Under the pieces are notes generated by a model. The model was not told the origin of the DNA and searched no databases. It was given only the letters and a program-made list of their open reading frames with translations. From a bacterium (GTDB taxonomy: Bacteria; Lernaellota; Lernaellaia; JACKCT01), in NCBI GenBank assembly GCA_963674685.2, contig CAXXWT010000005.1:711579-775578 (forward strand): a DNA stretch of 64,000 nt, written 5' to 3'. Each line of letters begins with the position of its first letter. The first letter of the stretch is position 1. Position numbers and translations under genes: made by a program. Below, piece by piece: positions 3,847 through 44,306 of the stretch.

Positions 3847-4239
3847 ATGACGGACAGCGAGTGGAAACCGAAATACCTGGGCAAATCCGTTTCCGGGCCG
3901 ATATCCGAAGTCGAGTTGATTCCCTGGAAGGACGGCCCTGTCCTCATCACCCTGGATTGCACCGAATTCACGACCTTGTGTCCCGTCACGCAACAGCCGG
4001 ATTTCGGGCGCCTGGAGATCACCTATATTCCGCGCGAGTATCTCATCGAAACCAAATCTCTGAAACTCTTCCTGCAAGGTTTTCGGGATTATAAAGGATT
4101 CAATGAACAGGTGGTCGCGCATCTGGCCGATGTATTATTCAAACGTACACAGCCCGCGTGGCTTTGCGTGGAAGGTTTTTACAACCGCCGGGGCGGCATC
4201 GGCGTGTCCTGCCGTTGCGAGCGAGGGGAAAAACCATAG
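3847..4239 (+). CDS. queF: NADPH-dependent 7-cyano-7-deazaguanine reductase, unimodular type
   Basis: ATG at 3847 with GAGGA upstream. 'TTLCPVTQQPDFGRLEITYIP' carries the catalytic Cys and QPDF. 'ETKSLKLFLQGFRD' matches the QueF motif. Size is about 130 aa. Confidence 0.85.
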   Translation: MTDSEWKPKYLGKSVSGPISEVELIPWKDGPVLITLDCTEFTTLCPVTQQPDFGRLEITYIPREYLIETKSLKLFLQGFRDYKGFNEQVVAHLADVLFKRTQPAWLCVEGFYNRRGGIGVSCRCERGEKP

Positions 4240-4467
4240 AAAATATGGTCGTTCAAAGGCGCTGAAAACCGGCCCGCCCATTCTTTTTCAGCATTGCCTA
4301 AAACATGATTCGCCTTTTTTAATCCTGTCTTTGGATATATAAAAGATTTACCCATAGATTTTTTTTGATTTCCTGACATAATACGCGGCGAAGACATGAT
4401 ACTTGTGCGCATCTTTATGTCGTGATGTGCAGGTGTAAATTCGATCAAGAGTCAGCGGGGTCCTTAA

Positions 4468-6291: not shown

Positions 6292-7406
6292 ACCAGCCTT
6301 TTAAAATGCGAGCCGCGATCCCAAGCTTTCGAGGACCGGCTGTATTGGGGTTGATTATCCTGATCTTTATCGGCGCCGGATGCGCCGCGCAAAGCGGGCG
6401 CGCCGCCCGCCCCACGCAGGTTCTGGATTTGGGCGCGGGCAAAATCGAGGTCGATCCTTCCGGGGAACTGCCACCCGGTTTCTGGGACTCCTACACTCTG
6501 ATGAAGGAAGGAAACACCCTTTTCGACCGAGGGCGGTATTCTGAAGCGGCCTCTTATTTCAACGCCGCGGCCGAGCGATTCGCCGGAGAGGAGACCGCAT
6601 CCCTGGCCTTGTTCAATCTCGGCGCATGTTACGAAAAAATGGGCGATTACGAACTGGCCCTGCGCAGCTATAAAGCCCTGGAAAAGACCGCCGGCCCGAA
6701 AATATCCCCACAGGAAATCCTCACCCGCCAACTATCCTGCCTGGAGGAACTGGGGCGATGGACCGGGGCCGTCGTCGTTTGCGACCGCCTCCGGGGATTG
6801 CCCGATTTACCCGAACCCGAGCGCATTGACGTTTCGCTTCGGCGCGGCGTCGCCCTGTATAAAAACGGCGATCCGGAAGCGGGAAAAAACGCGCTGAAAA
6901 AAGCGTTGATGGACTACCGGATTTTCGAACGCCGTCAATTGCCGACCAACAAGTATTTCGCCGCCAGAGGATACTTTTTCCTGGGTGAAATATATTTCGA
7001 AAGCTACGAAGCCATTGCCCTGAACGAACGCGGCGACGAACTGCGCTTGCAGCTTGAAGCCAAGGCGGATTATCTTTATCTGGCCAGAATGCAATACCTG
7101 CGCTCCATGCGCACATACGAGGGACGATGGCTGGCGGCGAGCCTGCACAAACTCGGTTATGGCTATGAAACTCTGTATTTTTCCATGAAAAACGCTCCGC
7201 TGCCTGAAGACCTTTCGGAAAGTCAGATCGGGGAATACAAGAAAAAGCTGGAAAAGAGGATTTCCAACCTGTTAAAGAAAGCCGTTGACGCCTATGAAAG
7301 AAATGCCGATCTTGACAAGCGGTTTGAGTTGCAGTCGCCATGGGCGGAAAAGTCCCGCGAGCGGCTTAAATACCTGCGGCAATATTGCGAAGGAATGAGG
7401 GACTGA
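6288..7406 (+). CDS. TPR-repeat lipoprotein
   Basis: The ATG overlaps the upstream stop (ATGA). Signal peptide with lipobox-like LIFIGAGC. TPR-like helices (GNTLFDRGRYSEAASYFNAAA..., LGACYEKMGDYELALRSYKAL). Confidence 0.6.
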   Translation: MNQPFKMRAAIPSFRGPAVLGLIILIFIGAGCAAQSGRAARPTQVLDLGAGKIEVDPSGELPPGFWDSYTLMKEGNTLFDRGRYSEAASYFNAAAERFAGEETASLALFNLGACYEKMGDYELALRSYKALEKTAGPKISPQEILTRQLSCLEELGRWTGAVVVCDRLRGLPDLPEPERIDVSLRRGVALYKNGDPEAGKNALKKALMDYRIFERRQLPTNKYFAARGYFFLGEIYFESYEAIALNERGDELRLQLEAKADYLYLARMQYLRSMRTYEGRWLAASLHKLGYGYETLYFSMKNAPLPEDLSESQIGEYKKKLEKRISNLLKKAVDAYERNADLDKRFELQSPWAEKSRERLKYLRQYCEGMRD

Positions 7407-8167
7407 TGCGAAAAACCCATGTGATCATCGCCGTTGCGGCGCTGGCTTTTCTATGTGCAACGAATCTTTTCGCGCATGATTTCTCCGGCGAAAACTTGAG
7501 TTACGAATTCGGGTGGAAAGGAATCCCCGCCGCCGACGCGACCGTGAAAATCCGGAACGGACAATGCGGCAAACCCTGCTACGGCATCAAGATCGAAATG
7601 AAAGGCAAAAAATATCTCGACCTGTTTTGGAAAGTCCGCGACCGCTTCGAATCCACCTGCCTGAAGGATAATTACGCCACGCAGCGATATGCTTTTTACC
7701 AAAGAGAAGGCAGTTTCAATCTCGATACGGAAATCACTTACAACAAGAAAGCCGGACGGCTGACATCCACGCGCTTTCGCCTGGACAAGAATAAAAACTA
7801 CAAGGATAAATCGGCCCAGCCGGAGGTGATATTCGGCCCCCTGGCTTCGATTCTCTACATGAGATCCAACGCCTTAAACGTCGGCGATGAAAAAAGCGTT
7901 CAGGTGTTCGACGGCAAAAGGACGCACACGCTTTACTGGAAAGTGACGGGCAAAGAAAAAGTGAAAATCGGCATGGGGGAATTCAATGCGCTCAAGCTCA
8001 TGCCCCGCATCACGAAGTCGTCTTCCAAAGATGATGACAGCAAGGTCGAAAAGGTCCGAAAAGTCACGATCTGGGTTTCGGATGATCCGTCCCACACGGT
8101 CCTGAAAATAGAATCCGAAGCTTTTGTCGGCAGCGTCTACGCGGAGCTTGTCAACGGCTGGCCCTGA
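7406..8167 (+). CDS. DUF3108-like secreted protein
   Basis: The ATG at 7406 overlaps the upstream TGA (TGATG). Signal peptide MRKTHVIIAVAALAFLCATNLFA. 'LSYEFGWKGIPAADATVKI' and the beta-rich remainder resemble DUF3108. The track start at 7385 (TTG) is less likely. Confidence 0.5.
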   Translation: MRKTHVIIAVAALAFLCATNLFAHDFSGENLSYEFGWKGIPAADATVKIRNGQCGKPCYGIKIEMKGKKYLDLFWKVRDRFESTCLKDNYATQRYAFYQREGSFNLDTEITYNKKAGRLTSTRFRLDKNKNYKDKSAQPEVIFGPLASILYMRSNALNVGDEKSVQVFDGKRTHTLYWKVTGKEKVKIGMGEFNALKLMPRITKSSSKDDDSKVEKVRKVTIWVSDDPSHTVLKIESEAFVGSVYAELVNGWP

Positions 8168-8210
8168 TAAAAGCAATACGGATTTAACTTTTGTCCTTTA
8201 TGAGAAAAAA

Positions 8211-9023
8211 ATGAAATCCGTTTACCGATCCTTTGTCATACTTGTTGTTTGTTGCACCCTATTGCCGCTTATTATCTCCTGCGCGCAAAAAGACGATGAC
8301 GATGACAGATCGCATGATTCGGTTGCGGCCGTCGATGACGATGATGATGAAAGCCCCGTCAATGACGACAGCGGCGGGTGCGTCGATGATGATCAAAACG
8401 ACGATCTTGACGATGACGTCGATGACGACGCTGATGATGACACAGCTTCGCCTGACGATGACGCGGATGATGACGCGAGCCCCTGCCCCGAAGATATGGC
8501 CTGGATCGATAACGGAAAAATCGACGCATTCTGCATGGACAAATGGGAGGCGTCCCGGCCGGACGCCTCCGCGGATGCAGAAGGCGCGCAAGACGATTAC
8601 GCCGCGTCCGTCGCGGGAGTCATTCCATGGAAACCCGCGGGCAACGCCCAGGCCCTGCAAGCCTGCGCGGACGCCGGGAAAACGCTTTGCACACCGGACC
8701 AGTGGTATTTTGCATGCGCCGGCCCGGACGATCTGGCTTACGCCTACGGCAACGCATACGGGCCGTATACCTGCAACGGCATCGACGCCTTCAGCCCCGA
8801 TCCGCACCACCTGGCGCCTACCGGTTCATTTCCCCAATGCGTAAACCAATGGGGCGTCTATGATCTTAACGGCAACCTCTGGGAGCGCGTTCTGGGCGGC
8901 GACGACACGACCGTGCGGGGCGGCGCGTACAATTGCAGCAATTCGCTGTTGTACCAGCGCTGCGACTACATCCCGGGCTGGACGCCTTCGGCCCTCGGCT
9001 TTCGCTGCTGTAAAACACCTTGA
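8211..9023 (+). CDS. Formylglycine-generating-enzyme (SUMF1/FGE) family lipoprotein with Asp-rich tether
   Basis: ATG at 8211. MKSVYRSFVILVVCCTLLPLIISC is a lipoprotein-type signal peptide, followed by a D-rich linker. The C-terminal 'WGVYDLNGNLWERV...VRGGAY...ALGFRCC' is the FGE-sulfatase domain signature. Confidence 0.75.
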   Translation: MKSVYRSFVILVVCCTLLPLIISCAQKDDDDDRSHDSVAAVDDDDDESPVNDDSGGCVDDDQNDDLDDDVDDDADDDTASPDDDADDDASPCPEDMAWIDNGKIDAFCMDKWEASRPDASADAEGAQDDYAASVAGVIPWKPAGNAQALQACADAGKTLCTPDQWYFACAGPDDLAYAYGNAYGPYTCNGIDAFSPDPHHLAPTGSFPQCVNQWGVYDLNGNLWERVLGGDDTTVRGGAYNCSNSLLYQRCDYIPGWTPSALGFRCCKTP

Positions 9024-9031
9024 CGAAGTGA

Positions 9032-10123
9032 TTAACTTTTATCCTCTTGCCCAAAAGCATCTTCACAGGATATGGGCAACTGCGCGGCGTCGAAGGTTTT
9101 GCTAAGGTGTTTGTCAATGAAATCCGCGTCGTTTGAAATCAGGCATTTGCCGTGGTAACCGGCAAAACAAGGAATGTTCAGGGCCTTTCGCCGGATTTCG
9201 TTCATGGACTCGCGCAGCACGTTCCCCAGAGATATATGCATGAACGGACACGGCAGCACGTCGCCGTAAGGCGTGATGTACAAATTCTTTTTCACGGCGC
9301 CGCAGCCGAATCGCCCGGCGTTGGCGTGCAGATCCGTGCGCACGTTCGGCGATCCATCGACTAATTCCATCAGATATTTCTGGTCGTCTTCATTCAGCAA
9401 CATATCCGACTTGCCCAGCCATCTTCCCGCAGGCGCCGGCATGAGCAGATATATCAGCACCCCGGTTTTTTCCGCCCATTTGAGCAAATCCGTCACACCG
9501 CGCGTGCGCAAAGACTGATGCGTCACGACGGTGTTGACTAAAACCCTGATCCCGGCGTCCAGGGCGCAGCCGACGCCCGTCATGGTTTTTGCGTGCGCGC
9601 CGTCGATTCCGCGAAATGCGTCGTGATCCTTCGCGTCGGCGCTGTCGATGCTGAAAGTCAGGATATCCACGCCGCGCGACTTGATCTCGAACGCTTTTTC
9701 CGGTGTGAGCAATGTGCCGTTTGTCGTGATGGAAATGATATTGCGGCTCGGGCTGCATGCGTTTATGACGTCGAAAAGCCCGTCATAACAAAAAGGCTCG
9801 CCGCCCTCGAAAGAAAAATTGATCGCGCCAAGCTCCATGCACTCCCCGGCCACGCGCCGGTAATCAGCCAAAGTCATCTTGGCCCGCGAGTCGTCGCGCA
9901 GAGCCTGCGCATAGCAATGCCGGCAATTGAGATTGCAATCGTAATCCAGACCGAAATCCACGTACCAAAGCGGCGGCTGATCGGTGAAACGATCCTTGGC
10001 AATCGCTCCCGCCAGGCGCGCGAGCATAAGCGGCTTTTTCGGAAAAAAAGCGTATTTGAGATCAAGCGAAATTTGTCGAAAATCCGTCATGTTCGATGCC
10101 CGAGCCGCCGGCTTTGCCGCCAT
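9032..10123 (-). CDS. Radical SAM protein with SPASM/twitch-like C-terminal extension
   Basis: 'DCNLNCRHCYA' is a CxxxCxxC cluster. 'FEGGEP' is a SAM-binding motif. The C-terminal 'GCGAVKKNLYITPYGDVLPCPF' resembles a SPASM/twitch motif. The start could instead be ATG 10090 (MTDFRQ). Confidence 0.75.
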   Translation of the reverse strand: MAAKPAARASNMTDFRQISLDLKYAFFPKKPLMLARLAGAIAKDRFTDQPPLWYVDFGLDYDCNLNCRHCYAQALRDDSRAKMTLADYRRVAGECMELGAINFSFEGGEPFCYDGLFDVINACSPSRNIISITTNGTLLTPEKAFEIKSRGVDILTFSIDSADAKDHDAFRGIDGAHAKTMTGVGCALDAGIRVLVNTVVTHQSLRTRGVTDLLKWAEKTGVLIYLLMPAPAGRWLGKSDMLLNEDDQKYLMELVDGSPNVRTDLHANAGRFGCGAVKKNLYITPYGDVLPCPFMHISLGNVLRESMNEIRRKALNIPCFAGYHGKCLISNDADFIDKHLSKTFDAAQLPISCEDAFGQEDKS

Positions 10124-10350: not shown

Positions 10351-11592
10351 CTAGTCTAGCTGCTGATGCACAAATAAGACACTTAGGTCGCCTCTGAAAA
10401 CTGGCTGATTCGGGATGCATCCCGAATTGTGTCTATATTGTAAATAATATTCATGTTGTCCCTGATTAGCACCAACCAGGCCATTTAATCCAAATCCAAA
10501 CCGCATCTGAGTCGAACTTCCGGGAGCTGTATACACATTTGTGGCTCCGATAGCGGAATTTTGAATGCAAATAGAATTGAAAAGATCATTTATTCTTAAA
10601 TCGAAGGTACATGATGGATTGCTATTATTGAATTCAATAATAGCATTTCCCGTACCAACGACAAAGAAAAATCCATCTTCCGGGGCATCAACTGAGAAAG
10701 AACGAATAGTTTGCCAATCTTCTAATCCCTCCCATGAAACTAATTCTGATGTACAAATACTTTTTGTACCAACGATTCCAAATGGCCCCTGCGGTCCTTG
10801 CGGCCCTTCCGCGCCTGTCGCACCTTGCGGTCCTTCTGGTCCTATTGCGCCTTGTGAGCCTTCTGGACCTGCCGGGCCTTGCGGTCCCTCTGGCCCTGTA
10901 GCACCTTGTGAGCCTTCTGGACCTGCCGGGCCTTGCGGTCCCTCTGGCCCTGTAGCACCTTGTGAGCCTTCTGGACCTGCCGGGCCTTGCGGTCCCTCTG
11001 GCCCTGTCGCACCTTGCGGTCCTTCTGGTCCTATTGCGCCTTGTGAGCCTTCTGGACCTGCCGGGCCTTGCGGTCCCTCTGGCCCTGTAGCACCTTGCGG
11101 TCCCTCTGGCCCTGTCTCGCCTTGCAGTAGATGTGCTTCATCATTAGCCGTAAGGCCGTACTGATTTTCCACCACGATCCTAATGTCTTCATATCCAGCA
11201 TCGAACCACTGTTCGATGTCCCAGCCATCAGAAACTAGTAATGCCTCAATTTGAGAGTCAGTACTATTGGAAGCAATCACAGGAAGTTCTCTTTCGATTT
11301 CAGGATGATTCAACGGATAAACGAAAACTCGGCTGTTGGTCAGATTCTGGCCCAAGATCAGAATCCCGTTTGCGACAAGGTCAGGCTGTGCGATCGAATT
11401 GCCTTTGACCGTTTGAATTATGGGGGCTTGGCCGCTCGTGTCGTCATCAATCCCAACATCATCATCCATGACGTAATCATCATCAATTGCTTCATCATCT
11501 TCATCATTTCCGCCACTGCTCTCGTAGCATCCAAAAGCTACAAAAATTGAAAACACAGTGGTCATCAAAATAACACCTAATAAAGCACGCAT
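10351..11592 (-). CDS. Collagen-like triple-helix-repeat lipoprotein with Asp-rich tether and globular C-terminal domain
   Basis: ATG at 11592 is preceded by [28 protein letters not shown] is a signal peptide with lipobox. A D-rich linker follows, then about 37 uninterrupted G-X-Y triplets ([28 protein letters not shown]...). The roughly 140-aa beta-rich C-terminal domain is possibly C1q/BclA-like, but that is a guess. Confidence 0.85.
10783..11125 (-). repeat. Tandem DNA repeat encoding the G-X-Y region (54-bp unit nested in a 189-bp repeat)
   Basis: The unit ccttgtgagccttctggacctgccgggccttgcggtccctctggccctgtagca recurs back to back from about 10850. caccttgcgg at 10821 recurs at 11010 (189 nt apart). 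Confidence 0.85.
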
Positions 11593-11968
11593 TTTAACCT
11601 CCTTGAGAACTTCTTTATTCATTGCGAACGTTTGAACTCAACCTACTATTCTCATTTGGCACGCAAACAGAAAATTGGAAATTTATGTGCCTATTATTAA
11701 ATTATATTTGTATTGTATTTCCAGCCGAAGCATTTTGTCAACAACATTCTCTTGAATTTGCAAATTACTTAAAATCCTGTAAAACTTCCCGAGGAATTCG
11801 GGAAAGTGCTTTCATACAATATAATAATTTGTCATAATAGTGGGACATTTCTGGTGTTTCAGGTGAAATTCGTCCAACGACTTCGCCGAGGCCATTGACC
11901 TTTTGCGCGTGATGCTGTCCAATAATCTCAACTTTTCCTGTTTCAACTTCAAAAAAGCGGAGTGACTT

Positions 11969-13582: not shown

Positions 13583-16084
13583 ATGAAGGCCTGGAAGCTG
13601 ATGGCGGTGGTTTTTTCAATTTTCTCGGCAACAGGAGCCTTGGCTGCGCCGGGAGACTGGATTGATCTCGGGGCGATAAGCGGCGCGGATACAATTTACG
13701 AACTTTATGAGGCGTCCAACGGAACCATTTACGTCGGAACCAATGACAACATGGCGTCCGTTAAAAAATCGACGAACGGCGGAGTCAGTTGGTCCAGTAC
13801 AAGCGATCTCTGGCTTGGTACGACGCGGGTTTATTCCATTACAGAGGACTCCGACGGAGTCATTTACGCCGCCTCACAATATTATCCCGGGATTATGCGG
13901 CATGGTTACGTCTATCGGAGCAGCAACGGCGGTTCATCCTGGACCCTGACCTTCAACCCGGATTCCGAATATACATACGATCTCATCTGCGCGCACAACG
14001 ACTATCTCATCGGAGGAACGCAGTATTATACGAGCTTCGAAAACAATGCCCGGGCCATAAGATCAACGGACGGAGCCGATTCATGGGGAACAGCCCGATT
14101 GGGTACGAATGACGGCGTCCGGGTGGTCTTTGAATCCTCCGACAATTATCTTTTCGCCGGCACCGACACCAATGGCGAGTTATGGCGAAGCACGGACAAT
14201 GCCTCGAACTGGTCGCTGATTTTCGAGCCGCCGGGAACCACTATTATTTTGTCGATTGGCGAGGATACAAACGGAAACATATATATCGGAGCGTACCCCA
14301 ACGGAGATATTTTCAAATCCACCGACGGCGGTGCAAACTGGAATTACACGGCTGATGTCGCCGGCGTGAGTTCAATCAGAACTATACTCGGTACATCTGA
14401 TGGAAGCATATATTTCGGACACGTCGGCGATACGGAAATTTACCGCAGCACCGACGGCGGCGATTCCTGGACGGCCGAGGCGCAGTTTTCCAGTACAACA
14501 CATATCAACTCATTGATCGAAAGTTCCGACGGATACATATACGCCGGCGCTGGAAACGACGGCCATGTGTACAAACGCCCCGTCTGCCCCGGAGGCTGCC
14601 TTGCCGACGGCCAATGCTTCGCCAACGGAGAAACGAACCCCGACAATGTCTGCCAGATTTGCGATATTGCTCAATCCGTCGGCGGATGGTCGGACAACGA
14701 CGGTGAAACATGCGACGACGGGCTTTACTGCACCGGGATCGACGAATGCGACGGAGGCACTTGTTCGGCGCATTCCAACGCGCCCTGCCCTGACGACAAC
14801 GTCTGGTGCAACGGCGACGAAACATGCGACGAAGGCACGCACGCCTGCGGCCATTCAGGAACGCCATGTCCCAGCGACGGTGTTTACTGCAACGGCCAGG
14901 AAAGCTGCGACGAGCAAAATGAGCAGTGCGTTCACATCAACGAGCCATGCCCCGACGACGGGCTTTGGTGCAACGGCGACGAAACCTGCGATGAAGGCAA
15001 CTTCCAATGCGGACACACCGGCGACCGTTGCACCGACGACGGGACCTGGTGCAACGGCGCGGAAAGCTGCGATGAAACCGGCGATCAGTGCCTGCATATC
15101 AACGAGCCGTGTCCCGACGACGGGCTTTGGTGCAACGGCATCGAGTCCTGCAATGAAGGTGCGCAAAGTTGCGAAACCACGGGCGATCCCTGCCCTGAGG
15201 ACAACACCTTCTGCAACGGTGAAAACGGCTGCAACGAAGACAACGATGCGTGTGAGCCGGTCAACGTGCCGTGCGGCGACGACGGACTGTGGTGCAACGG
15301 CGTGGAATCCTGCAATGAAATCGACGACCAATGCCTGCACTCAGGCGATCCGTGCCTGCAGGATGATTTCTGGTGCAACGGCGACGAGTATTGCGACGAG
15401 GACGCCGACGAATGCGCGCACGAAGGCAATCCCTGTGACGACGGCGAATTCTGCAACGGCGAAGAAGTTTGCACGGAACCCACGCAGTCCTGCAGCGAGG
15501 GAGCGCCGCCCTGCGTCGACGACGGCCTTTACTGCAATGGCGACGAATCCTGCGACGAAGTGGGCGACGAATGCACCCACGAGGGCAATCCCTGTGACGA
15601 CGGCGTTTTCTGCAACGGCGCGGAAGAATGCGTGGAAGACGGCGACGACTGCGAGCACGGCGAAGATCCATGCCCCGACGACGGCCTCTGGTGCACCGGG
15701 GAAGAATCCTGCAACGAGCAGGAGGAAGAATGCGAGACCACGGGCAATCCCTGCGACGACGGCGAATTCTGCAACGGCGAAGAGACCTGCGATGAAGATA
15801 ACCAGAGCTGCGACGAAGGTGAAGATCCCTGCCCCGACGACGGCTTATATTGCACCGGCGAAGAAAGCTGCGACGAGCAGACCGACGAATGTATGCAATC
15901 GGGCGATCCTTGCGAGTTGAACGAGACCTGCAACGAGCAGGAGGATCAATGCATCGATCTCTTGAGCGACGATGATACGACCTCGGATGATGACTATACA
16001 TCGGACGACGATACGGACGACGAGGAAAGTTCCGGGCGAAGCGGCAGCGACAGCGATGATACCGGCGGCGGCTGCGGATGCTGA
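13583..16084 (+). CDS. Secreted Asp-box (BNR/sortilin-like) beta-propeller head, CNG-type Cys-repeat stalk, acidic tail, C-terminal GCGC
   Basis: Signal peptide MKAWKLMAVVFSIFSATGALA. Six S-x-D-x-G-x-x-W boxes (STNGGVSWS, SSNGGSSWT, STDGADSWG, STDNASNWS, STDGGANWN, STDGGDSWT). Neck 'NPDNVCQIC...WSDNDGETCDDGLYCTG'. About 17 repeats of C.DDG.WCNG.E.C. Ends ...DSDDTGGGCGC*. Confidence 0.85.
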   Translation: MKAWKLMAVVFSIFSATGALAAPGDWIDLGAISGADTIYELYEASNGTIYVGTNDNMASVKKSTNGGVSWSSTSDLWLGTTRVYSITEDSDGVIYAASQYYPGIMRHGYVYRSSNGGSSWTLTFNPDSEYTYDLICAHNDYLIGGTQYYTSFENNARAIRSTDGADSWGTARLGTNDGVRVVFESSDNYLFAGTDTNGELWRSTDNASNWSLIFEPPGTTIILSIGEDTNGNIYIGAYPNGDIFKSTDGGANWNYTADVAGVSSIRTILGTSDGSIYFGHVGDTEIYRSTDGGDSWTAEAQFSSTTHINSLIESSDGYIYAGAGNDGHVYKRPVCPGGCLADGQCFANGETNPDNVCQICDIAQSVGGWSDNDGETCDDGLYCTGIDECDGGTCSAHSNAPCPDDNVWCNGDETCDEGTHACGHSGTPCPSDGVYCNGQESCDEQNEQCVHINEPCPDDGLWCNGDETCDEGNFQCGHTGDRCTDDGTWCNGAESCDETGDQCLHINEPCPDDGLWCNGIESCNEGAQSCETTGDPCPEDNTFCNGENGCNEDNDACEPVNVPCGDDGLWCNGVESCNEIDDQCLHSGDPCLQDDFWCNGDEYCDEDADECAHEGNPCDDGEFCNGEEVCTEPTQSCSEGAPPCVDDGLYCNGDESCDEVGDECTHEGNPCDDGVFCNGAEECVEDGDDCEHGEDPCPDDGLWCTGEESCNEQEEECETTGNPCDDGEFCNGEETCDEDNQSCDEGEDPCPDDGLYCTGEESCDEQTDECMQSGDPCELNETCNEQEDQCIDLLSDDDTTSDDDYTSDDDTDDEESSGRSGSDSDDTGGGCGC

Positions 16085-16122
16085 AATGACAATGTGATTT
16101 GAATCATTTCCTGGGAGAAAAA

Positions 16123-18156
16123 ATGCGACGAATTAGCCTGCTATTGACCTTCATTTTCCTTGCGGCGATTCCTTTCGGCGCCTTCGCACAAACATGGACA
16201 CTGCGCGGCAGCGCTCCATTGTCCACCGGTTTATCGGGAATGGCGATCGGCGGCGACGGAACCCTATACTTCGCTTGCATGGGTAACGGCTTCTATAAAT
16301 CGATCAACCGAGGGCAGACTTGGACCCAGGTCAGCGATCGATATGTAAGAGGTCTCGCCATTGATTCCACCGGAACTCTCTGGGGAATCGACAATGGCTC
16401 CACCCGACTGGTTTACAGCGAAGACGGCGGTGAAACCTGGAATACGACAAACTACTTCCCCAATTACCCGAATAATATAGCTTATGCAGTAATGGTTTCG
16501 AGCGACGATAAGATTTGGGCCGCCGGATACGATAAAGACTCGGACCCAAATTACTTGCGGGTCTACCGAAGCCCCGACGGAGGCAATACTTGGGTAACAC
16601 AGGATACGTTTCCCTATAGCACTACTATTGGGCAATTTCTGTTTGAAACCGATAGTAACACGCTTCTGCTTTGCACGAACCCAAATTACACCTATTACGG
16701 AAGGGTCTTCCGATCAACGAATCAGGGAATCAATTGGTCCCAGACCTTTTATTTCAGTGGCGATAATGGCAGTAATCCGATAACCTTGGCTCAGGACAAT
16801 ACGGGCGCCGTATTTCTGGCTCAACGCTACGATATCTGGAAAAGCGTCGACGACGGCGCGTCTTGGTTTAACCTGCCCAATACACCCGAAGGCGTCTACG
16901 TTTACTACGACATAGAAACGGATTTGGACGGTAATCTGTATGTGCCGGGGTATTCCACCGGTCAATATGTTATATACCGAACAACCGATTCCGGCGCCAC
17001 ATGGGAAACTCCCGCCGCTTTGGAAAACGCGGGGACTATATATTATATTGAAACAGGACCTGACGGCTCTGTTTTCGCCGTAGCTTACGGTGCACACCCC
17101 AGTTATTATTATAAAACTTATGAATTCTGCGACGGCTGCTACATCGGCGGCGTGTGCTACGCGGCGACCGAAATAAATCCTTCCAATCCCTGCGAATTTT
17201 GCGATCCGGCATACTCCAAGACCAACTGGAATAACCGCGACGGCCTGGCCTGTGACGACGGCCAATATTGCAACGGCGACGACACCTGCGTGGCCAGCGC
17301 CTGCACAACCCACGCGGGCAATCCCTGCGCAGACGACGGCTTGTGGTGCAACGGTCAACAGATCTGCGACGAAGGCTCGGACCAATGTTTCAACATTAAC
17401 ATCCCCGACTGTCCCGACGACGGTCTGTGGTGCAACGGGGACGAAGTGTGCGACGAGGTAGCCGACCAGTGTGGCCACACCGGAACGCCCTGCCCCGACG
17501 ACGCCGTGTACTGCAACGGGGACGAGGGATGTGACGATGCAACCGACGAATGCACGCATACCGGCGATCCCTGCCAACAAGACGGCGTTTTCTGCAACGG
17601 TGTCGAGGTCTGCGACGCAGAAGAGGATCAATGCATTTCCCCGGGCGATCCCTGCACCGACGACGGCCTGTATTGCAACGGCAATGATTGGTGCGACGAG
17701 GATTTCGACGAATGCATGCACGAGTACGATGAATCGAATCCTCTGTGCCCGGATGACGGTATTTATTGCAACGGCGACGAAATTTGCGACGAGCAAGGCG
17801 ATCAATGCGGTTCGTCGGGTGACCCTTGCGAAGATGACGGCGAGTTTTGCAATGGAGATGAGGTCTGCGACGAAGAAGCCGCCGAATGCATTAATTCGGG
17901 CGATCCGTGCGAGGAAGATGAAACCTGCAACGAAGATATCGACGAATGTTTGACCGCGGACGATGACACGGCGGACGATGACACAGTGGACGACGATACC
18001 TCCGACGATGATACTGCCGATGACGACACGGTCGATGACGACACAGCCGACGATGACGCCGATGATGACGATGTTGACGCTGATGACGATACTGAAGACG
18101 AACATGCTGACGGAGACGACGATGATGATTCCACCGGCAGCGGATGCGGGTGCTGA
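16123..18156 (+). CDS. Secreted Asp-box beta-propeller head, CNG-type Cys-repeat stalk, DDDTx-repeat acidic tail, C-terminal GCGC
   Basis: Signal peptide MRRISLLLTFIFLAAIPFGAFA. Asp-boxes SINRGQTWT, SEDGGETWN, SPDGGNTWV, STNQGINWS, SVDDGASWF, TTDSGATWE. Neck 'NPSNPCEFC...WNNRDGLACDDGQYCNG'. The tail ADDDTADDDTVDDDTSDDDT... ends STGSGCGC*. Confidence 0.85.
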   Translation: MRRISLLLTFIFLAAIPFGAFAQTWTLRGSAPLSTGLSGMAIGGDGTLYFACMGNGFYKSINRGQTWTQVSDRYVRGLAIDSTGTLWGIDNGSTRLVYSEDGGETWNTTNYFPNYPNNIAYAVMVSSDDKIWAAGYDKDSDPNYLRVYRSPDGGNTWVTQDTFPYSTTIGQFLFETDSNTLLLCTNPNYTYYGRVFRSTNQGINWSQTFYFSGDNGSNPITLAQDNTGAVFLAQRYDIWKSVDDGASWFNLPNTPEGVYVYYDIETDLDGNLYVPGYSTGQYVIYRTTDSGATWETPAALENAGTIYYIETGPDGSVFAVAYGAHPSYYYKTYEFCDGCYIGGVCYAATEINPSNPCEFCDPAYSKTNWNNRDGLACDDGQYCNGDDTCVASACTTHAGNPCADDGLWCNGQQICDEGSDQCFNINIPDCPDDGLWCNGDEVCDEVADQCGHTGTPCPDDAVYCNGDEGCDDATDECTHTGDPCQQDGVFCNGVEVCDAEEDQCISPGDPCTDDGLYCNGNDWCDEDFDECMHEYDESNPLCPDDGIYCNGDEICDEQGDQCGSSGDPCEDDGEFCNGDEVCDEEAAECINSGDPCEEDETCNEDIDECLTADDDTADDDTVDDDTSDDDTADDDTVDDDTADDDADDDDVDADDDTEDEHADGDDDDDSTGSGCGC

Positions 18157-18190
18157 AAATTTTATGAATTGAAAAACAAGAGGTTGTGAG

Positions 18191-20137
18191 ATGGGGAATT
18201 TCAAGATTGCGGCGATGATCCTTTCGCTGCTGTTCATTACGTCCGCGGCGCTTGCCGTCGACGACTCCGAAGAAGATACGGACGTCGCCGAAGCGGCAAA
18301 AGAATTTGATTCGGTCAAATACGAGGAACTTGACGACGAACCGATCTTCGACATGGAGCTTTCCGAAGAATGGGATGAACCGTATGTGTACGAGCCGGAA
18401 GGATTCGGCGAAGATCCGCTCATCACGGCTGTGATGGAAGACGACCTACTGGACGACACCTACGTGAGCGAGAGGTTTTCAGGCACGAATTACGGATATC
18501 GGAACTATTTCTATGCGGGTGCGGAGCTTGGGAAATGGGAATATGCGCTACTCAAAGCCTACCCCTGCCCGACCGCCGGATACGTCACTTCGGCGAAATT
18601 ACACGTCAAAATCGATATCTACAACATACTGTTTGAAGAGGATTTTTACGTCGCCCGCCCAACCTCGTTGTGGGATGAACACCAGGTCGATTGGAATAAC
18701 CGTCCCGGTTATGACGCCAACAGCACCGATCAAACAACGGTTTACGACGGAGACTGGTTTACACTGACGGCGACTAAAGCCGTGCAGCAGGCGTGCAATA
18801 ACGGGCAGGTTAACGGCGGTTTTTACATTTTCCATAAAAACGACTCCCTTCTGGCCGGGGACATTGGAATGCTCAGCGTAGAGGGCAACGGAAACTCGCC
18901 GGTGAGTTATATTCAAATTACTTACGAGGCCGGTTGCGCCATCGGCGGCAAAGTTTATCAAAACAACACGGTCAATCCGGGCAATCCGTGCGAGATCTGT
19001 AAAACGAGCCTGAACCGATATGACTGGTCGGCGCGAAACGGCGTCGCATGCAATGACGGCTTGTACTGCAACGGGACCGATACCTGCTCCAATAGGATCT
19101 GCTCCGTCCATACCGGTGACCCCTGTCCGGAAAACAGCAACGTGTGCGACGGAATTCGTACCTGTAATGAAAGTACCGACTCCTGCAACAACGGCACGCC
19201 CCTGAACTGTAATGATGGAAAAGTTTGCACCGACGATTCCTGCGATCCGATCGCCGGTTGCCAATACGCCGACAACACGGATCCATGCGACGACGGCGTT
19301 TTTTGTAACGGCGACGACACCTGCTCGGGCGGCACGTGTTCCGAGCATGACGGCGATCCCTGCGGCGACGACAACATTTTCTGCAATGGAAACGAGTATT
19401 GCGACACAGAACAGGACGAATGCACACACTCGGGAACGCCCTGCCCCGACGACGGCGAATTCTGCAACGGCCAGGAGTATTGCGAGGAGGCGACCGATCG
19501 TTGCCTGAGAACAGATGCGCCCTGCGGCGACGACGGTGTTTTTTGCAACGGCGTTGAAAGCTGCGACGAAGAATACGACCTATGCCAATCCGCCGGCGAT
19601 CCATGCGGCGGCGACGACGGTCTGTGGTGCACGGGTGAGGATTGGTGCGACGAAGAGGCCGACGAATGCGCCCATGATTACGATGACGAAAATCCCCGCT
19701 GCGCCGACGACGGCCTCTGGTGTAACGGCGACGAAATCTGCGTCGAACTCTTTCAGGAATGTGCCCATGAATTCGACGAAGACAACCTGCGATGCGGCGA
19801 CGACGGCCTGTGGTGCAACGGCGCGGAGAGTTGCGACGAGCAAAACGACGAGTGCGCATCCTCCGGGAACCCTTGTGACGTAAATGAAAGTTGCGTTGAA
19901 GATACGGATGAATGTCTGACGGTCGACGATGACGCCGATGACGACACGGATGACGATACGGATGACGACGCGGACGATGATACGACAGACGACGATGTGG
20001 ACGATGACGATGACGACGATACGGAAACGGACGATGATCTCGTTGATGACGACAGCTCGGATGATGAAGATGACGATCAAGCCGACCTTCGCAGTGGCGG
20101 CGACAGCGATTCCAGCGGCAGCGGATGTGGATGCTGA
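18191..20137 (+). CDS. Secreted DNRLRE/CBM-like beta-sandwich head, CNG-type Cys-repeat stalk, acidic tail, C-terminal GCGC
   Basis: Signal peptide MGNFKIAAMILSLLFITSAALA. The head has 'DDTYVSE...ALLKAY...VTSAKLHVKI...WDEHQVDWNNRP', which fits the DNRLRE-domain logic (low-to-moderate confidence). Neck 'NPGNPCEIC...WSARNGVACNDGLYCNG'. Ends DSSGSGCGC*. Confidence 0.8.
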   Translation: MGNFKIAAMILSLLFITSAALAVDDSEEDTDVAEAAKEFDSVKYEELDDEPIFDMELSEEWDEPYVYEPEGFGEDPLITAVMEDDLLDDTYVSERFSGTNYGYRNYFYAGAELGKWEYALLKAYPCPTAGYVTSAKLHVKIDIYNILFEEDFYVARPTSLWDEHQVDWNNRPGYDANSTDQTTVYDGDWFTLTATKAVQQACNNGQVNGGFYIFHKNDSLLAGDIGMLSVEGNGNSPVSYIQITYEAGCAIGGKVYQNNTVNPGNPCEICKTSLNRYDWSARNGVACNDGLYCNGTDTCSNRICSVHTGDPCPENSNVCDGIRTCNESTDSCNNGTPLNCNDGKVCTDDSCDPIAGCQYADNTDPCDDGVFCNGDDTCSGGTCSEHDGDPCGDDNIFCNGNEYCDTEQDECTHSGTPCPDDGEFCNGQEYCEEATDRCLRTDAPCGDDGVFCNGVESCDEEYDLCQSAGDPCGGDDGLWCTGEDWCDEEADECAHDYDDENPRCADDGLWCNGDEICVELFQECAHEFDEDNLRCGDDGLWCNGAESCDEQNDECASSGNPCDVNESCVEDTDECLTVDDDADDDTDDDTDDDADDDTTDDDVDDDDDDDTETDDDLVDDDSSDDEDDDQADLRSGGDSDSSGSGCGC

Positions 20138-20169
20138 AAATCATTCATTGAAGAATGGGGAGATAAACG

Positions 20170-22134
20170 ATGAGATTTACGTCCTTGTATTTGGTTCTTC
20201 TCCTGACTCTGGCGCTTTGGGCAACAGGATCGTGGGCGGAGGATATAGAAAGTCCGTTCCTGGAATTTGATGAAAACCAGGCCCTTTTATGGGAGAACGC
20301 CGATATCGACTACGAATTTTCTGATATTCAATATTCCGATCCTTTCGGCGAATTTTGGCAGCCTATCGAGATTGACCCGGATGGCGGCGATAATCGACCG
20401 GCGGGACTGCGCAGAAGTATTATTCCCATGGATTCACCCGACGCGGCGGAAACAAGAACGGATTCCATCGGTGTATTGGTCGATTGTTTCCAAAACGAAA
20501 ACAATCCAAGCGAATATGGCTGCGGCACGGATTATATACGAGTGGGATACAGGTATGGTTGGTATCATGCATTATTCAAGGCGGATATCTGCCGGGACGC
20601 CGATGAAATCGTCAGCGCCAGTTTGCGAATCAATATTAAAGGCAACTATCTGGCTACGACGGAATACTTTCGCATCTATGCAATTTCCGATTCCTGGTAC
20701 AGTCCGAACTGGTATGGAACACCAGACTATTATCCCAATGTTTACAGCTCCACATCGGTCAGTTCGGGCACCACGGGATGGGTCTCCTTCAATGCACTCA
20801 ATGCTGCGAAATTGTATTGCGAAGACGGCTATACCAACTGGGGTTTTTTCCTGCGGCATCACGATTCATCCCACAGCATCAATTACATCCATTTCGATTC
20901 GGAAGAGGCCAACAACGACAATCCGGTAACCTTTTACGACGTGACATACATTCTTCGCTGCGACATCGGCGGACAAAAATACGACCATCTGGAAACGAAT
21001 CCGGCGAATCCTTGTCTGGTCTGCGATGTGGACCAGGATTTGGAGCATTGGTCTCTCAACGACGGAGGCGCATGCGACGACGGCGTTTTCTGCAACGGCG
21101 CCGACACTTGCCAGGTCGGATCATGTTCCGTCCACGCCGGCGATCCCTGCCCCGACGACGGTTTGTGGTGCAACGGCGCGGAAAGTTGTAACGAATCGGG
21201 TGGTCAATGCGAGACGACAGGCGCGCCATGTGATTCGGTTTGCCAGGATTGTAATGATACTGCCGACACGTGCGTCGATAACAGCGATTCCTGTAATGAC
21301 GGGCTGTATTGCAACGGCGCGGACACGTGCGCCGGCGGCACCTGTTCGATCCACGCAGGAAATCCCTGCCCCGACAACGGCCTGTTTTGCGACGGCGAAG
21401 AATATTGCGACGAAGTCGGCAATCAATGCGACGTCCAGAACGTTCCGAACTGCGTCAACGACAATCTTTGGTGCAACGGTGAAGAATACTGCGATGAAAC
21501 CCTCAATGCCTGCAGCGCGGAAAATGTTCCGGACTGCTCGGATGACGGTTTATGGTGCAACGGCGAAGAATTCTGCAACGAAAACGACAACGCCTGCGAC
21601 CGGGAAAACATCCCGGACTGCGACGCCGACGACGGCCTCTGGTGCAACGGGATCGAACTTTGCGACGAAGATGCCGACCAGTGCGGACACGAATTCGGCG
21701 ACGGCAATCCGCGCTGCAACGACGGCATTTTCTGCAACGGCGAAGATCCCTGCAACGAGGAAACGGATCAATGCGGCCACGGAGATCAGGATCCATGTAC
21801 CGATGACGGCCTTTGGTGCAACGGTGAAGAATCCTGCGACGAGGTCGGCGACCAATGCCTGCATTCCGGCGATCCCTGCGATGACGGCGAAGAATGCATC
21901 GAAGACAATGACGAATGCATCGACGCCCCTGACGATGACACGGACGATGATACTTCAGACGATGATGCAGATGACGACACGACTTCGCCTGACGATGACG
22001 ATACATCGGACGATGACACCTCAGATGATGACACCATTAGCGATGACGATGATGATGACGAGACCAGCGAACCCGAACAAAGCACCGGCGGAAGCGGCGA
22101 CAGCGACTCCACCGGCAGCGGATGCGGATGCTGA
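20170..22134 (+). CDS. Secreted paralog of 18191-20137 (related beta-sandwich head), CNG-type Cys-repeat stalk, acidic tail, C-terminal GCGC
   Basis: Signal peptide MRFTSLYLVLLLTLALWATGSWA. The head aligns in outline with the previous gene (YHALFKADIC...IVSASLRINIK...). Neck 'NPANPCLVC...WSLNDGGACDDGVFCNG'. Ends DSTGSGCGC*. Confidence 0.8.
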   Translation: MRFTSLYLVLLLTLALWATGSWAEDIESPFLEFDENQALLWENADIDYEFSDIQYSDPFGEFWQPIEIDPDGGDNRPAGLRRSIIPMDSPDAAETRTDSIGVLVDCFQNENNPSEYGCGTDYIRVGYRYGWYHALFKADICRDADEIVSASLRINIKGNYLATTEYFRIYAISDSWYSPNWYGTPDYYPNVYSSTSVSSGTTGWVSFNALNAAKLYCEDGYTNWGFFLRHHDSSHSINYIHFDSEEANNDNPVTFYDVTYILRCDIGGQKYDHLETNPANPCLVCDVDQDLEHWSLNDGGACDDGVFCNGADTCQVGSCSVHAGDPCPDDGLWCNGAESCNESGGQCETTGAPCDSVCQDCNDTADTCVDNSDSCNDGLYCNGADTCAGGTCSIHAGNPCPDNGLFCDGEEYCDEVGNQCDVQNVPNCVNDNLWCNGEEYCDETLNACSAENVPDCSDDGLWCNGEEFCNENDNACDRENIPDCDADDGLWCNGIELCDEDADQCGHEFGDGNPRCNDGIFCNGEDPCNEETDQCGHGDQDPCTDDGLWCNGEESCDEVGDQCLHSGDPCDDGEECIEDNDECIDAPDDDTDDDTSDDDADDDTTSPDDDDTSDDDTSDDDTISDDDDDDETSEPEQSTGGSGDSDSTGSGCGC

Positions 22135-22161: not shown

Positions 22162-22590
22162 ATGGATACGCCACGAGGATTTTACGAAAACAAGATTTAC
22201 CTGATCATCCAAATCATCGCGGCGGTGTTCATGTTCATCGCCGGCATTTTGCAACTGGCCATGAAACACCAGATGGGATGGTTCTATTTGATTCTGGGTG
22301 TTGGAATGATTTTTATCGGCGTCTTACGCCGCTCATATGCGATCATCGAGTTTCGCACCGACGCCCTCACCTTGAAAAAAGCTCCGGCATTCGCCAGAAA
22401 AATCCTGCCGTATTCGCAGATCACGCATGCGGAAATCGTGTCCGCCAAAAAAGTGAAGTTCCACTATGAAAACGAAGGGCAAAAGGATGTTTTGGCGCTT
22501 CCCCTAAACGGAATTTCCGGGGCCGACCGACTCGAAGTCATGGATATCATCAAATCGAACTTCCGCGTGGAAGAACCTTCGCAATCTTAA
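22162..22590 (+). CDS. Small membrane protein (two TM helices plus a soluble, possibly PH-like, domain)
   Basis: Starts 27 nt after the upstream stop on the same strand. Hydrophobic segments IYLIIQIIAAVFMFIAGILQLA and WFYLILGVGMIFIGVL. No family recognised. Confidence 0.5.
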   Translation: MDTPRGFYENKIYLIIQIIAAVFMFIAGILQLAMKHQMGWFYLILGVGMIFIGVLRRSYAIIEFRTDALTLKKAPAFARKILPYSQITHAEIVSAKKVKFHYENEGQKDVLALPLNGISGADRLEVMDIIKSNFRVEEPSQS

Positions 22591-26935: not shown

Positions 26936-28401
26936 CAATACTGTTCACTTAAAGCCCCCTTTCCACGATGCGGCATGTAGGGGAAGCCCGTGGTGGATCG
27001 AGATTTTCCCCTCGTCGTCGTATGGGATAGTTGCTCATCTTCACTTTGACGCCGCGTTTGTTTCTTCGCTCTCGGCTGGAGACCACGCGTTCTTCGAGAA
27101 TTTCTTCCAAGAGCCATCGATGGAATTTCTTTCTAAGCCGAGGGGGGAAAAGGATTTGTTTTTGGGATTTTTCGCCTCACGATGCGCACGGCGTGAACGA
27201 AGGAAAGTTTGTCCGCATCGAGATTGACGCTTTTGGCAGCCTGATGCATCAGATTGCGGATCATGAAGTGGGCCAGCATCAGGCCGAAAAATTCCTGTTT
27301 CACCAAGGCCGGGCTCTTGCTGCGCAACACGATCTTCGCCCCGCGCAGATGGGTTTTGAGTTCATCGAACGCCGTTTCGATCTCCCATCGTTCGTGGTAA
27401 AGCGCCGCCAGTTCCTCCGCCGGCGCGGCCTTCGCGTCAAGAATCGTCGTGATCAGGCGATAAATCGGCTCCGCGTCGGGCTGCCCTTCAAGCCGATACT
27501 CGATAACCCGAACCCGGATTCCGTCCTTGTTGTGTCGTTGCGCTTTTTCCGTCGGATAGATCGTGCTCAGATAGGATCCGTCGGACAGTTGTTTTTCCTT
27601 GCGCCGTACGTTGTTGATTTTGAGTCGCCAAAGCAGGTCCGCGCCGGTTTCGGCCGCCTGTTTCCACAAGGGATAACCGAAAAAATTCCGATCCGCCAGG
27701 CACAGCATCCCCTTTTGCAGATGTCCGACGACCTCTTGGGCCAACGTGATTTCCTGGACGCCGTAGGAACCCATACGCGAGTCGAACAACACGTGGGTGC
27801 CGTTCTCCACCAATGACACAAAACGGATTTTCGGATAACCGCTTTTGCCCCGAGACGCTTTCGGCCGACCGAAAGCCGCTTCGTTCTCATCGGTGTCCGC
27901 CACGTCCAGGGTGCTGCCGTCCAGGCTGACCGTTTTCCATTTTCGATACCACGCACCCGGTGTTTTTCGCGAAGCCAAAGGGCGCACCGAACGGTCGTGA
28001 AGCAAGCGAATCGGCTCGACGCCCAACCGCGTTCGAGCCTGGGATATCCCCGACTTGCCTGCGGTGCGCACCGGCTTCCCCAAAGATGGAAACCACTTGA
28101 TCCCCTCTTGCAAACAACGCAAAACCTCACCGTAGGAAACCTGCATGTACAACGACATGGCGATCACGTAATAGACCATCAAATCCGCCGGCAAATCACG
28201 CTCGCGAACACTGGCTTTACCGCTCTCGTACAAAATCGCCTGTACCTGCTCAAGAGGAAAGGTCATGCCGAGAACCCCAAGACTGATATGATCCGTGACA
28301 CGCATCCCTGGCGGAAGTTCTGCTACTGTTCTTGCCATAGTCGTATCCTCCTTCAATCGAAAGAAGAATACCAGAAAAATTTACTTAAGTGAACAGTATT
28401 G
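26936..28401 (-). mobile_element. IS4-family insertion sequence (1466 bp) with 17-bp perfect terminal inverted repeats and a 10-bp target-site duplication
   Basis: IRs are CAATACTGTTCACTTAA (26936-26952) and TTAAGTGAACAGTATTG (28385-28401). The direct repeat CTGCTAGCCC flanks both ends (26926-26935 and 28402-28411). Confidence 0.9.
27133..28338 (-). CDS. IS4-family DDE transposase
   Basis: ATG at 28338 preceded by GGAGGA. The N-terminal region 'DHISLGVLGMTFPLEQVQAIL..GKASVRERDLPADLMVYYVIAMSLY' resembles the IS4 N-terminal domain. 'YHERWEIETAFDELK' is the Y-x2-R-x3-E-x6-K signature. Confidence 0.85.
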   Translation of the reverse strand: MARTVAELPPGMRVTDHISLGVLGMTFPLEQVQAILYESGKASVRERDLPADLMVYYVIAMSLYMQVSYGEVLRCLQEGIKWFPSLGKPVRTAGKSGISQARTRLGVEPIRLLHDRSVRPLASRKTPGAWYRKWKTVSLDGSTLDVADTDENEAAFGRPKASRGKSGYPKIRFVSLVENGTHVLFDSRMGSYGVQEITLAQEVVGHLQKGMLCLADRNFFGYPLWKQAAETGADLLWRLKINNVRRKEKQLSDGSYLSTIYPTEKAQRHNKDGIRVRVIEYRLEGQPDAEPIYRLITTILDAKAAPAEELAALYHERWEIETAFDELKTHLRGAKIVLRSKSPALVKQEFFGLMLAHFMIRNLMHQAAKSVNLDADKLSFVHAVRIVRRKIPKTNPFPPSA

Positions 28402-43799: not shown

Positions 43800-44168
43800 C
43801 TACGCGCCTTCGGGGATGTTGAAACACCGAGCCAGATCGCCGCAGCCTTTGGCTTCGGTGACGCATTGCATAAGCCAGTCGCTTAAGTCGGCGGCATATT
43901 CCACGCACTGCTCGATATCGAGATCATCGGTAAAACCGCACTCGTCGATTTTACGGCAGGCGATTTCGATCTTGTCCTCCTCGGAGGCGTCATCGTCGTC
44001 ATCGTCGTCATCATCGTCATCATCGTCGTCATCGTCATCGTCGTCGTCATCCCCGCCGGCGCCGTCGCAGGCCGAGGCAGTCACCGACAAAAATGATATC
44101 AGCAATAAGCAAAGCATGAATGCGAGTTTTTCGAAAATCGCTGTCGAGCCGGAATCCTCAAACTTCAT
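43800..44168 (-). CDS. Small lipoprotein-like protein with a run of 21 Asp and one degenerate copy of the Cys module found in 56477-57736
   Basis: Signal peptide ...MLCLLLISFLSVTASAC, then GAGG + D x21 (GAC/GAT run 43988-44050), then 'ACRKIDECGFTDDLDIEQCVEYAADLSDWLMQCVTEAKGCGDLARC'. Confidence 0.6.
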   Translation of the reverse strand: MKFEDSGSTAIFEKLAFMLCLLLISFLSVTASACDGAGGDDDDDDDDDDDDDDDDDDDDDASEEDKIEIACRKIDECGFTDDLDIEQCVEYAADLSDWLMQCVTEAKGCGDLARCFNIPEGA

Positions 44169-44306
44169 TTGAACACCCGTCCTGGTGCGTGGGCAAGGAA
44201 AAACTATCTTCCCTGATTCTACGTAGAACCATGGAAAAATCCAGCGATTGAATTTCTTTTAAGGTTCATCGGACGGTTGATTCGCGCACGGCGAATGCGA
44301 TCACGC

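Follow-up and report, generated by a model that had tools for sequence, protein, structure and literature searches.

Seven genes of one design were identified in a 64,000-nucleotide (nt) stretch of a bacterial chromosome from the candidate phylum Lernaellota (assembly GCA_963674685.2, contig CAXXWT010000005.1, positions 711,579 to 775,578 of the forward strand; hereafter the window). Each encodes a protein in which a variable head is followed by two to 28 copies of a four-cysteine repeat, an Asp-rich linker of 37 to 89 amino acids (aa) and a terminal Cys motif. Every complete member begins with a Sec signal peptide, and a Cys-rich neck is present in five of the seven. That these are secreted proteins with a modular, head-on-rod architecture is held with high confidence. 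The best reading of their role, to which we give a probability of roughly 55%, is that they are displayed ligand-binding proteins held by a C-terminal tag that is related to the MYXO-CTERM signal and would require no cleavage.

Four of the genes, designated B to E, form a plus-strand tandem array at 13583-22134 (B, 13583-16084, 833 aa; C, 16123-18156, 677 aa; D, 18191-20137, 648 aa; E, 20170-22134, 654 aa); successive genes are 38, 34 and 32 nt apart. Three further members lie on the same strand: A (2-3835, its 5' end cut by the window edge), F (45454-47196, 580 aa) and G (47342-49078, 578 aa), a paralogue of F. These open reading frames (ORFs) are as described in the original prediction, which had been made from the sequence alone. 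The signal peptides of the complete members are of type I and end in ..ALA/A (..GALA/AP in B), AFA/Q, ALA/V or SWA/E, the slash marking the cleavage site. No lipobox Cys stands at any of these sites, and by that measure the complete members are not classical lipoproteins. Scans of the array for promoters and terminators gave matches at chance level only.

The C-terminal tail

All seven proteins end in an acidic linker and a Cys motif, an ending that was found in no other ORF of the window. The terminal residues are GSGCGC in C (18136-18153), D (20117-20134) and E (22114-22131), GGGCGC in B (16064-16081), GGSGCGC in F (47173-47193), DCCGC in G (49061-49075) and GGCCAYN in A (3812-3832). The corresponding linkers occupy 17950-18135 in C, 19916-20116 in D, 21919-22113 in E, 15953-16063 in B, 46918-47172 in F (85 aa), 48794-49060 in G and 3695-3811 in A. 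An A-like protein on the CAZQAE01 contig, the gene for which is interrupted by a masked run of N, ends in GGCCAYD.

Neither a transmembrane helix nor an Arg cluster follows the motif in the window proteins; the stop codon comes directly, six of the genes ending in TGA immediately after a TGC or TGT codon and one in TAG. Stop-codon read-through or recoding into a hidden transmembrane helix was considered and rejected, as read-through yielded short peptides with further stops and no hydrophobic stretch. Since read-through uncovers no helix and the next gene begins only 32 to 38 nt downstream, the termini are genuine.

The tail recurs among relatives of the window proteins. It was detected in 43 of the 120 best stalk homologues, where the endings included GGCCGC (12 proteins), GCGC (7), GGCCG (4) and GGCCGCD (3), and where WPxGxVxGG preceded the motif in 21 of the 43. 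In a second set, 28 of 117 representatives carried it. Across 71 tail-bearing homologues the linkers ranged from 13 to 120 aa (median, 37) and consisted of 41% Asp, and GG or SG stood directly before the first Cys in 48. Comparison of orthologues revealed conservation of the last eight or nine residues, together with gain and loss of units in the linker. Among the genome loci that were fetched (identified by L numbers), the tail was restricted to metagenome-assembled genomes (MAGs) labelled FEN-1099 and a few similar MAGs labelled "uncultured bacterium," tail-bearing examples being CAZQAE01, CAYSHR01, CAZEDX01 and CAZPJD01.

The tail is an independent module, since it is also found on proteins with no stalk repeats or with one or two. 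In Lernaellota-type loci it terminates stalk-free proteins, namely a transglutaminase-like/Big_1 protein, a GDSL lipase and three proteins without a Pfam match, as well as one disintegrin-like and one FG-GAP protein in which a regular expression recovered only one or two repeats (L008, 5364-8276; L015, 11911-13248 and 13318-14838; L017, 12222-12974; L029, 12431-13927; L076, 11088-12119; L081, 6794-10528).

In other phyla, the same stalk ends differently. Myxococcota homologues carry ..SGCGC or GCECG followed by a hydrophobic helix and RRR, and score 17 to 20 bits on the MYXO-CTERM profile TIGR03901.2 (cut-off, 20), while Planctomycetota homologues have tags that combine a transmembrane helix with basic residues, and Binatia homologues have dockerin-like ends. 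The window tails gave no match to TIGR03901 even at E <= 10, and no dockerin is present in the window proteins. Dockerin-like ends finishing in C-x-C (..LQCPC, ..LLCAC) were observed in L030, L036, L041, L042, L044, L052 and L062, from Binatia and uncultured Myxococcales MAGs; to judge from these sequences, they suggest a cohesin-dockerin type of anchoring for the same chassis in another phylum.

A mirror image of the tail is found at the opposite end of other proteins of the same lineage. Predicted lipoproteins begin with the lipobox Cys, a Gly and then poly-Asp, the reverse of ...poly-Asp-Gly-Gly-Cys-Cys-Gly-Cys. Two are encoded in the window (8148-9023, plus strand; 43800-44174, minus strand) and others in L005, L006, L011, L015, L017, L046, L053 and L081; one example starts with VTASAC followed by DGAGG and 21 Asp residues. 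No Cys-Gly-poly-Asp lipoprotein was found in the fetched loci of other phyla, and a literature search returned no description of either the helix-free tag or poly-Asp linkers in lipoproteins.

Proposed anchoring and its main alternative

The MYXO-CTERM logo has been described with a "GCGC motif" (Haft 2023, bioRxiv 10.1101/2023.06.07.544157), the Cys of which is required for cleavage by the CPBP-family protease MrtX (PMC11980579; bioRxiv 10.1101/2023.06.07.544157). In the working model, this Cys is lipidated, the protein is cut just distal to it, and the T2SS (type II secretion system) carries the protein to the surface (PMC11980579); the invariant Cys is modified by an enzyme that is still unknown (PMC11980579). 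From the published motif and cleavage model it follows that the Lernaellota proteins stop at the point proposed for the end of a processed MYXO-CTERM protein, the encoded C-terminus of the window proteins matching the one proposed after MrtX cleavage. Clients of the pathway such as Myxococcus xanthus TraA share with the window proteins a signal peptide, a variable head, a Cys-rich stalk, a disordered linker and a GCGC/CCG signature near the C-terminus, and MYXO-CTERM itself is found on Myxococcota homologues of this very stalk. The original prediction had likened the family to TraA by its layout; the resemblance is more specific than was then recognized, since GCGC, found here at the terminus, has been published as the signature of MYXO-CTERM.

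The likeness has limits. Of four testable features of MYXO-CTERM, only the Cys signature motif is present in the window tails, and the helix, the Arg cluster and the profile score are not; moreover, the linker is poly-Asp and the host belongs to Lernaellota rather than Myxococcota. No myxosortase (CPBP family MrtX, MrtC or MrtP) was found in the 64-kb window or the fetched loci, which were the sequences searched. Among prenylated proteins, CAAX termini need Rce1-type cleavage after the lipidated Cys, and the CC and CXC termini of Rab proteins need none. In a purely formal analogy, GCGC, CCGC and CCAYN ends would likewise need no cleavage, but Rab proteins are cytosolic and are modified by cytosolic prenyltransferases, whereas the window proteins are Sec-exported and no prenyltransferase is implicated.

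We propose that the proteins would be exported by Sec and then undergo oxidative folding. A rigid rod of beta-hairpin repeats, presumably stapled by disulfides, would present the head, and in five of the seven the neck would join the two. The head would be a non-enzymatic ligand binder, most likely glycan-binding, with the fold of a beta-propeller or a CBM96-type beta-sandwich. The Asp-rich linker would act as a flexible, strongly negative and self-repelling spacer, and the terminal G-(G/S)-C-(C/G)-G-C would be the anchoring tag of the lineage, encoded already "cut" and so independent of intramembrane cleavage by a myxosortase. Modification or linkage of the terminal Cys, whether by lipid or by a disulfide or thioether, would finally hold the protein on the cell envelope.

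Confidence differs among the parts of this proposal. The modularity of the tail, its restriction to one lineage, the anchors that it replaces on the same stalk, the identity of its motif and the mirror-image lipoproteins together suggest, with medium confidence, that it serves as a sorting or anchoring signal. Confidence is low for the chemistry of the terminal Cys (lipid, disulfide or other) and for the ligands. More tentative is the extension of the proposal to an undescribed class of C-terminal anchoring, helix-free and cleavage-free, in which an Asp linker with GCGC or CCGC would be used throughout Lernaellota on many unrelated secreted proteins and the terminal Cys would acquire a covalently attached lipid or another linkage in the periplasm; such a class is possible, though we would not expect it.

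If the proteins are anchored, modification of the Cys would be possible without a transmembrane helix and without a myxosortase, and the Cys-modification step of the MYXO-CTERM pathway would be separated from the cleavage step. The pre-trimmed tag would then be a natural experiment, and comparative genomics of Lernaellota and Myxococcota could point to a shared enzyme. Poly-Asp spacers would stand beside anchor cysteines at both protein ends in this candidate phylum, and the poly-Asp/Cys pattern would help annotate its surface proteome and presumed polymer-capture machinery.

Several considerations count against this proposal. No candidate modifying or sorting enzyme was present in the window or recurred beside tail-bearing genes in 21 Lernaellota-type stretches; in an all-against-all BLASTP comparison of the ORFs from these stretches, nothing recurred but ABC ATPases of a generic kind and shadow ORFs in alternate frames. 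A membrane-embedded acyltransferase would be poorly suited to a soluble periplasmic C-terminus that bears so strongly anionic a linker, and the two terminal cysteines might do no more than form a disulfide or bind metal. Several of the "uncultured bacterium" MAGs were placed in Lernaellota by association rather than by phylogeny. As regards the rod, the relation of its repeat to a known family, described below, spans just 20 columns of a Cys-rich motif, and AlphaFold was confident in one of five models.

The chief alternative dispenses with a membrane anchor altogether: the proteins would be released as matrix or scaffold components, cross-linked by intermolecular disulfides through the terminal Cys pair or binding metal there. 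We consider this unlikely. It would account for terminal vicinal or CXC cysteines that lie outside the four-Cys repeat unit, it fits a neighborhood that includes a collagen-like gene and further repeat proteins that are secreted, and there is a precedent in TraA, which is released by the T2SS when it lacks its tag (PMC11980579). The 41% Asp content of the linkers would suit a corollary that strikes us as equally doubtful, in which poly-Asp binds Ca2+ or mineral surfaces. However, in other phyla the same stalk carries bona fide anchors (MYXO-CTERM, dockerin, and tags with a helix and basic residues) in place of the tail, and the mirror-image lipoproteins argue for a membrane-proximal role of Cys and poly-Asp. 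In addition, GG/SG-C-C/G-G-C is conserved too tightly for a generic free cysteine.

Stalks, heads and their evolution

The stalk repeat has the consensus PC.DDG.(W/F/Y)CNG.E.C(D/N)E..D.C...G, with four Cys in each copy and a period of 25 to 30 aa. A regular expression recovered 28 copies in A (1271-3694), 15 in B (14711-15952), 8 in C (17251-17949), 9 in D (19049-19915), 9 in E (21073-21918) and 2 each in F and G. A short cap, GDPC....C.E..DEC, closes the stalk ahead of the linker; in F and G, the repeats and cap together span 46720-46917 and 48596-48793. The neck, C..C...NP.NPC..C......W....G..C.DG..CNG.D.C..G.C, is conserved in A to E (from nt 1148, 14585, 17128, 18935 and 20959, respectively) and absent from F and G. 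The original prediction was therefore accurate in assigning the four-Cys repeat to all seven proteins and the neck to five. Tandem Repeats Finder reported the stalk DNA as tandem arrays of 81 to 90 nt whose copies are only about 62 to 76% identical, and the repeats are thus old.

Searches of the stalks against Pfam-A, NCBIfam (including TIGR02232, TIGR04201 and TIGR03901) and PDB sequences produced no usable match even at E <= 10; for stalk and tail, there were only noise-level hits to EGF_2 (E 0.07-0.3) and YjzC (E 0.05). At the level of hidden Markov models, the repeat thus belongs to no named family, as had been supposed. TIGR04201, TIGR02232 and DUF4215 (PF13948) are likewise bacterial extracellular Cys-rich tandem repeats for which a rigid-stalk role has been proposed, and PF13948 is also found on some homologues of the window proteins, but none of the three matched the window stalks at E <= 10. 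The repeat of a 2026 preprint on horizontal gene transfer ("CysRRep") was discarded as irrelevant to the stalk, its pattern being Cx6-9Cx5-7Cx8-11Cx7-8CC.

One repeat embedded in the stalk of D resembles the slime-mould repeat Dicty_CTDC (PF00526; E 5e-4; 20.3 bits, where the gathering score is 27), although that profile matched neither the whole proteins nor stalk B. The two repeat types share four Cys and the skeleton C-x-D-D-G-x-x-C ... D/E-x-C ... C, and the window repeat differs in its period (27 to 30 aa, compared with 24), in having CNG for CT, and in one extra residue in each of three loops. Homologues mix CTDC-type repeats (CDDGNxCTxDxCxxGxC), intermediate forms (CDDGLFCTGxDTCSGGSC) and CNG repeats, and a local hhalign comparison of 60 CNG with 60 CTDC-type repeats gave a probability of 87% (E 3.8e-6; 20 columns) with profiles that are short and Cys-biased. 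Taken together, the embedded repeat, the mixed homologues and the hhalign result argue, with moderate confidence, that the stalk repeat belongs to the slime-mould-repeat superfamily as a branch of longer period that has not been described. The window proteins are best filed as an uncurated slime-mould-type Cys-repeat branch combined with a helix-free Cys-terminal tag, for which no earlier description was found.

The family is large. Of 1.84 billion cluster representatives (50% identity), 1,671 matched a five-repeat profile at E <= 1e-3, 795 at E <= 1e-10 and 224 at E <= 1e-30. These roughly 1,670 clusters define a Cys-rich repeat family, so far uncurated, that provides a common stalk for very diverse heads in at least five phyla.

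The structure of the rod was modelled with AlphaFold2. Five repeats with a 38-sequence alignment gave an unusable model (predicted local distance difference test score [pLDDT], 52). With four in-register repeats and a 58-sequence alignment, the best model reached a pLDDT of 89.9 and the other four scored 52 to 57. Both runs placed one beta-hairpin in each repeat, at the same positions. The one confident model makes a disulfide-stapled rod of four-Cys repeats plausible. When the four-repeat rod was searched against PDB with Foldseek, nothing matched at E <= 1e-3. The best structural neighbor of the single confident model was another Cys-rich stalk, that of the Entamoeba histolytica Gal/GalNAc lectin heavy chain (PDB 9gjc/9gjb), which has a carbohydrate-recognition function; this likeness is not significant (E 0.022; template modelling score [TM], 0.34; 18 to 21% identity).

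Profile searches with Pfam and NCBIfam agreed with the heads that had been predicted. The head of A is an SBBP beta-propeller, those of B and C are propellers of the BNR/Asp-box and BNR/sortilin types, and those of D and E are DNRLRE/CBM96-type beta-sandwiches that match the DNRLRE_dom model NF033679 (E 8e-16 and 4e-11, respectively) and Pfam CBM96. A head of seven 55-aa repeats had been proposed for both F and G; by regular expression this is correct for F, probably a propeller, and G has six. Both heads are weakly similar to PDIAV-lipoprotein and GH43 models. PA14 was found in none of the seven. Among homologues, the same stalk carries FG-GAP, Kelch, SBBP, BNR, CBM96, LamG, peptidase C1, disintegrin, NosD, DUF1566 and other heads, and the idea of one chassis with many heads is therefore correct at the family level.

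A relative of the array was examined in JGI Ga0675942_0000892, where a syntenic six-gene array (r1 to r6) lies downstream of a Na:Ala-symporter remnant. Genes r3 to r6 are collinear orthologues of B to E, and r1 and r2 are additional C-like and E-like copies. Consistent with the expectation that heads diverge faster than stalks, orthologous heads are 46 to 62% identical in amino acid sequence, compared with 77 to 79% for stalks, and the rate of nonsynonymous substitution (dN) is 2 to 4 times higher in heads. The ratio of dN to the synonymous rate (dS) is 0.13 to 0.27 for heads and 0.07 to 0.12 for stalks of orthologue pairs and 0.32 for the heads of the paralogues r2 and r6, values to be read with dS saturated, for which reason the ratio could not be computed for the heads of E and r6. 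Since head dN/dS is below 1 wherever it is computable, diversifying selection is not demonstrated, and the earlier suggestion of a diversifying receptor family is not borne out.

The relative also carries traces of exchange. Between r1 and r4, the heads are about 45 to 55% identical in DNA, and the stalk tract at aa 410-530 is 96 to 100% identical, with third codon positions 0.85 to 1.0 identical; the switch falls about 40 residues past the NPxNPC neck motif. Between r2 and r6, the N-terminal 80 aa (79 to 91%) and the stalk at aa 381-540 (91 to 97%) flank a head core of 55 to 68%. Near-identical stalk tracts beside diverged heads are direct evidence that recombination or gene conversion keeps stalks alike while heads differ in this relative, and the tracts begin just after the neck. 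The seven window genes display no recent exchange among themselves, their best tracts being 72 to 92% identical and mostly shorter than about 230 nt. The family would have grown by tandem duplication, with stalks retained or homogenized by recombination as heads diverged.

These results bear on whether the proteins, like TraA, are polymorphic receptors for kin or partner recognition, the heads mediating homotypic contact between cells and the stalk and tag serving display only. A variable head on a Cys-rich stalk with a GCGC-type terminus, the faster evolution of heads, and the r2/r6 head cassettes between conserved flanks are all in keeping with such receptors. However, heads under purifying selection (dN/dS, 0.13 to 0.32), drawn from glycan-binding or propeller families and retained as orthologues in synteny across two genomes are not, and the features of a TraA-type receptor, namely PA14, TIGR04201 and an adjacent OmpA-domain partner (TraB), are all absent at the array. 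Its neighbors are instead a Na:Ala symporter, a small membrane protein, a 225-aa protein and an acetyl-CoA hydrolase. The likeness to TraA therefore stands for the layout and the MYXO-CTERM signature and fails for the helix, Arg cluster, TIGR03901, TIGR04201, PA14 and TraB, and a role in recognition appears improbable. Least probable of all is that the propeller heads are glycoside hydrolases (sialidase-, GH74- or GH43-like) of tethered polysaccharide degraders. In favor of this are weak matches to a glycosylhydrolase of the F510_1955 family (E 1.7e-18; 67 bits, where the cut-off is 175), to BNR_2 and to Glyco_hydro_43, together with the predicted polymer-degrading habit of Lernaellota (PMC9324843). 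Against it, every catalytic-family match is far under its curated cut-off, the heads of D and E are of a type that binds carbohydrate and are not catalytic domains, and no catalytic motif was identified.

Lineage and neighboring genes

The nearest taxon-named relatives of the phosphoglycerate kinase encoded in the window are those of Candidatus Lernaella stagnicola (62%) and Ca. Alcyoniella australis (59%), and protein D finds its best genome matches in the FEN-1099 MAGs FR-FEN-1099-1, fen_1099 and HK-STAS-FEN-2. These matches place the organism in Ca. Lernaellota (FEN-1099), a candidate phylum for which breakdown of polysaccharides and proteins in anoxic waters has been inferred (PMC9324843). 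The window consists of ordinary chromosomal DNA, with pgk, gap, tpi, fbp, feoAB and an IS4 element, and a homologue of siderophore porins fits a diderm envelope.

A small two-helix membrane protein of no assigned family is encoded directly downstream of the array both in the window (22162-22590, plus strand) and in the relative (L001, 20883-21299). Between the array and feoAB sits a gene for an IS4-family transposase (27133-28356, minus strand; NF033592, E 5e-67). At 53355-54761 (minus strand) is a B12-binding radical SAM enzyme that resembles BchE, ApyD and HpnJ, with all matches below cut-offs. The genes downstream of A (3847-8167), for a 130-aa protein, a Ser/Thr kinase, a TPR protein and a DUF3108 protein, are syntenic with L054 12254-16792 on the CAZQAE01 contig. 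Beyond them, a collagen triple-helix repeat protein (10351-11622, minus strand; 27-nt DNA repeats at 10796-11125) adjoins a radical SAM/SPASM enzyme (9032-10123, minus strand) and a lipoprotein with an FGE-sulfatase domain (8124-9023, plus strand), and the three genes may constitute a cassette in which a collagen-like protein destined for secretion is matured.

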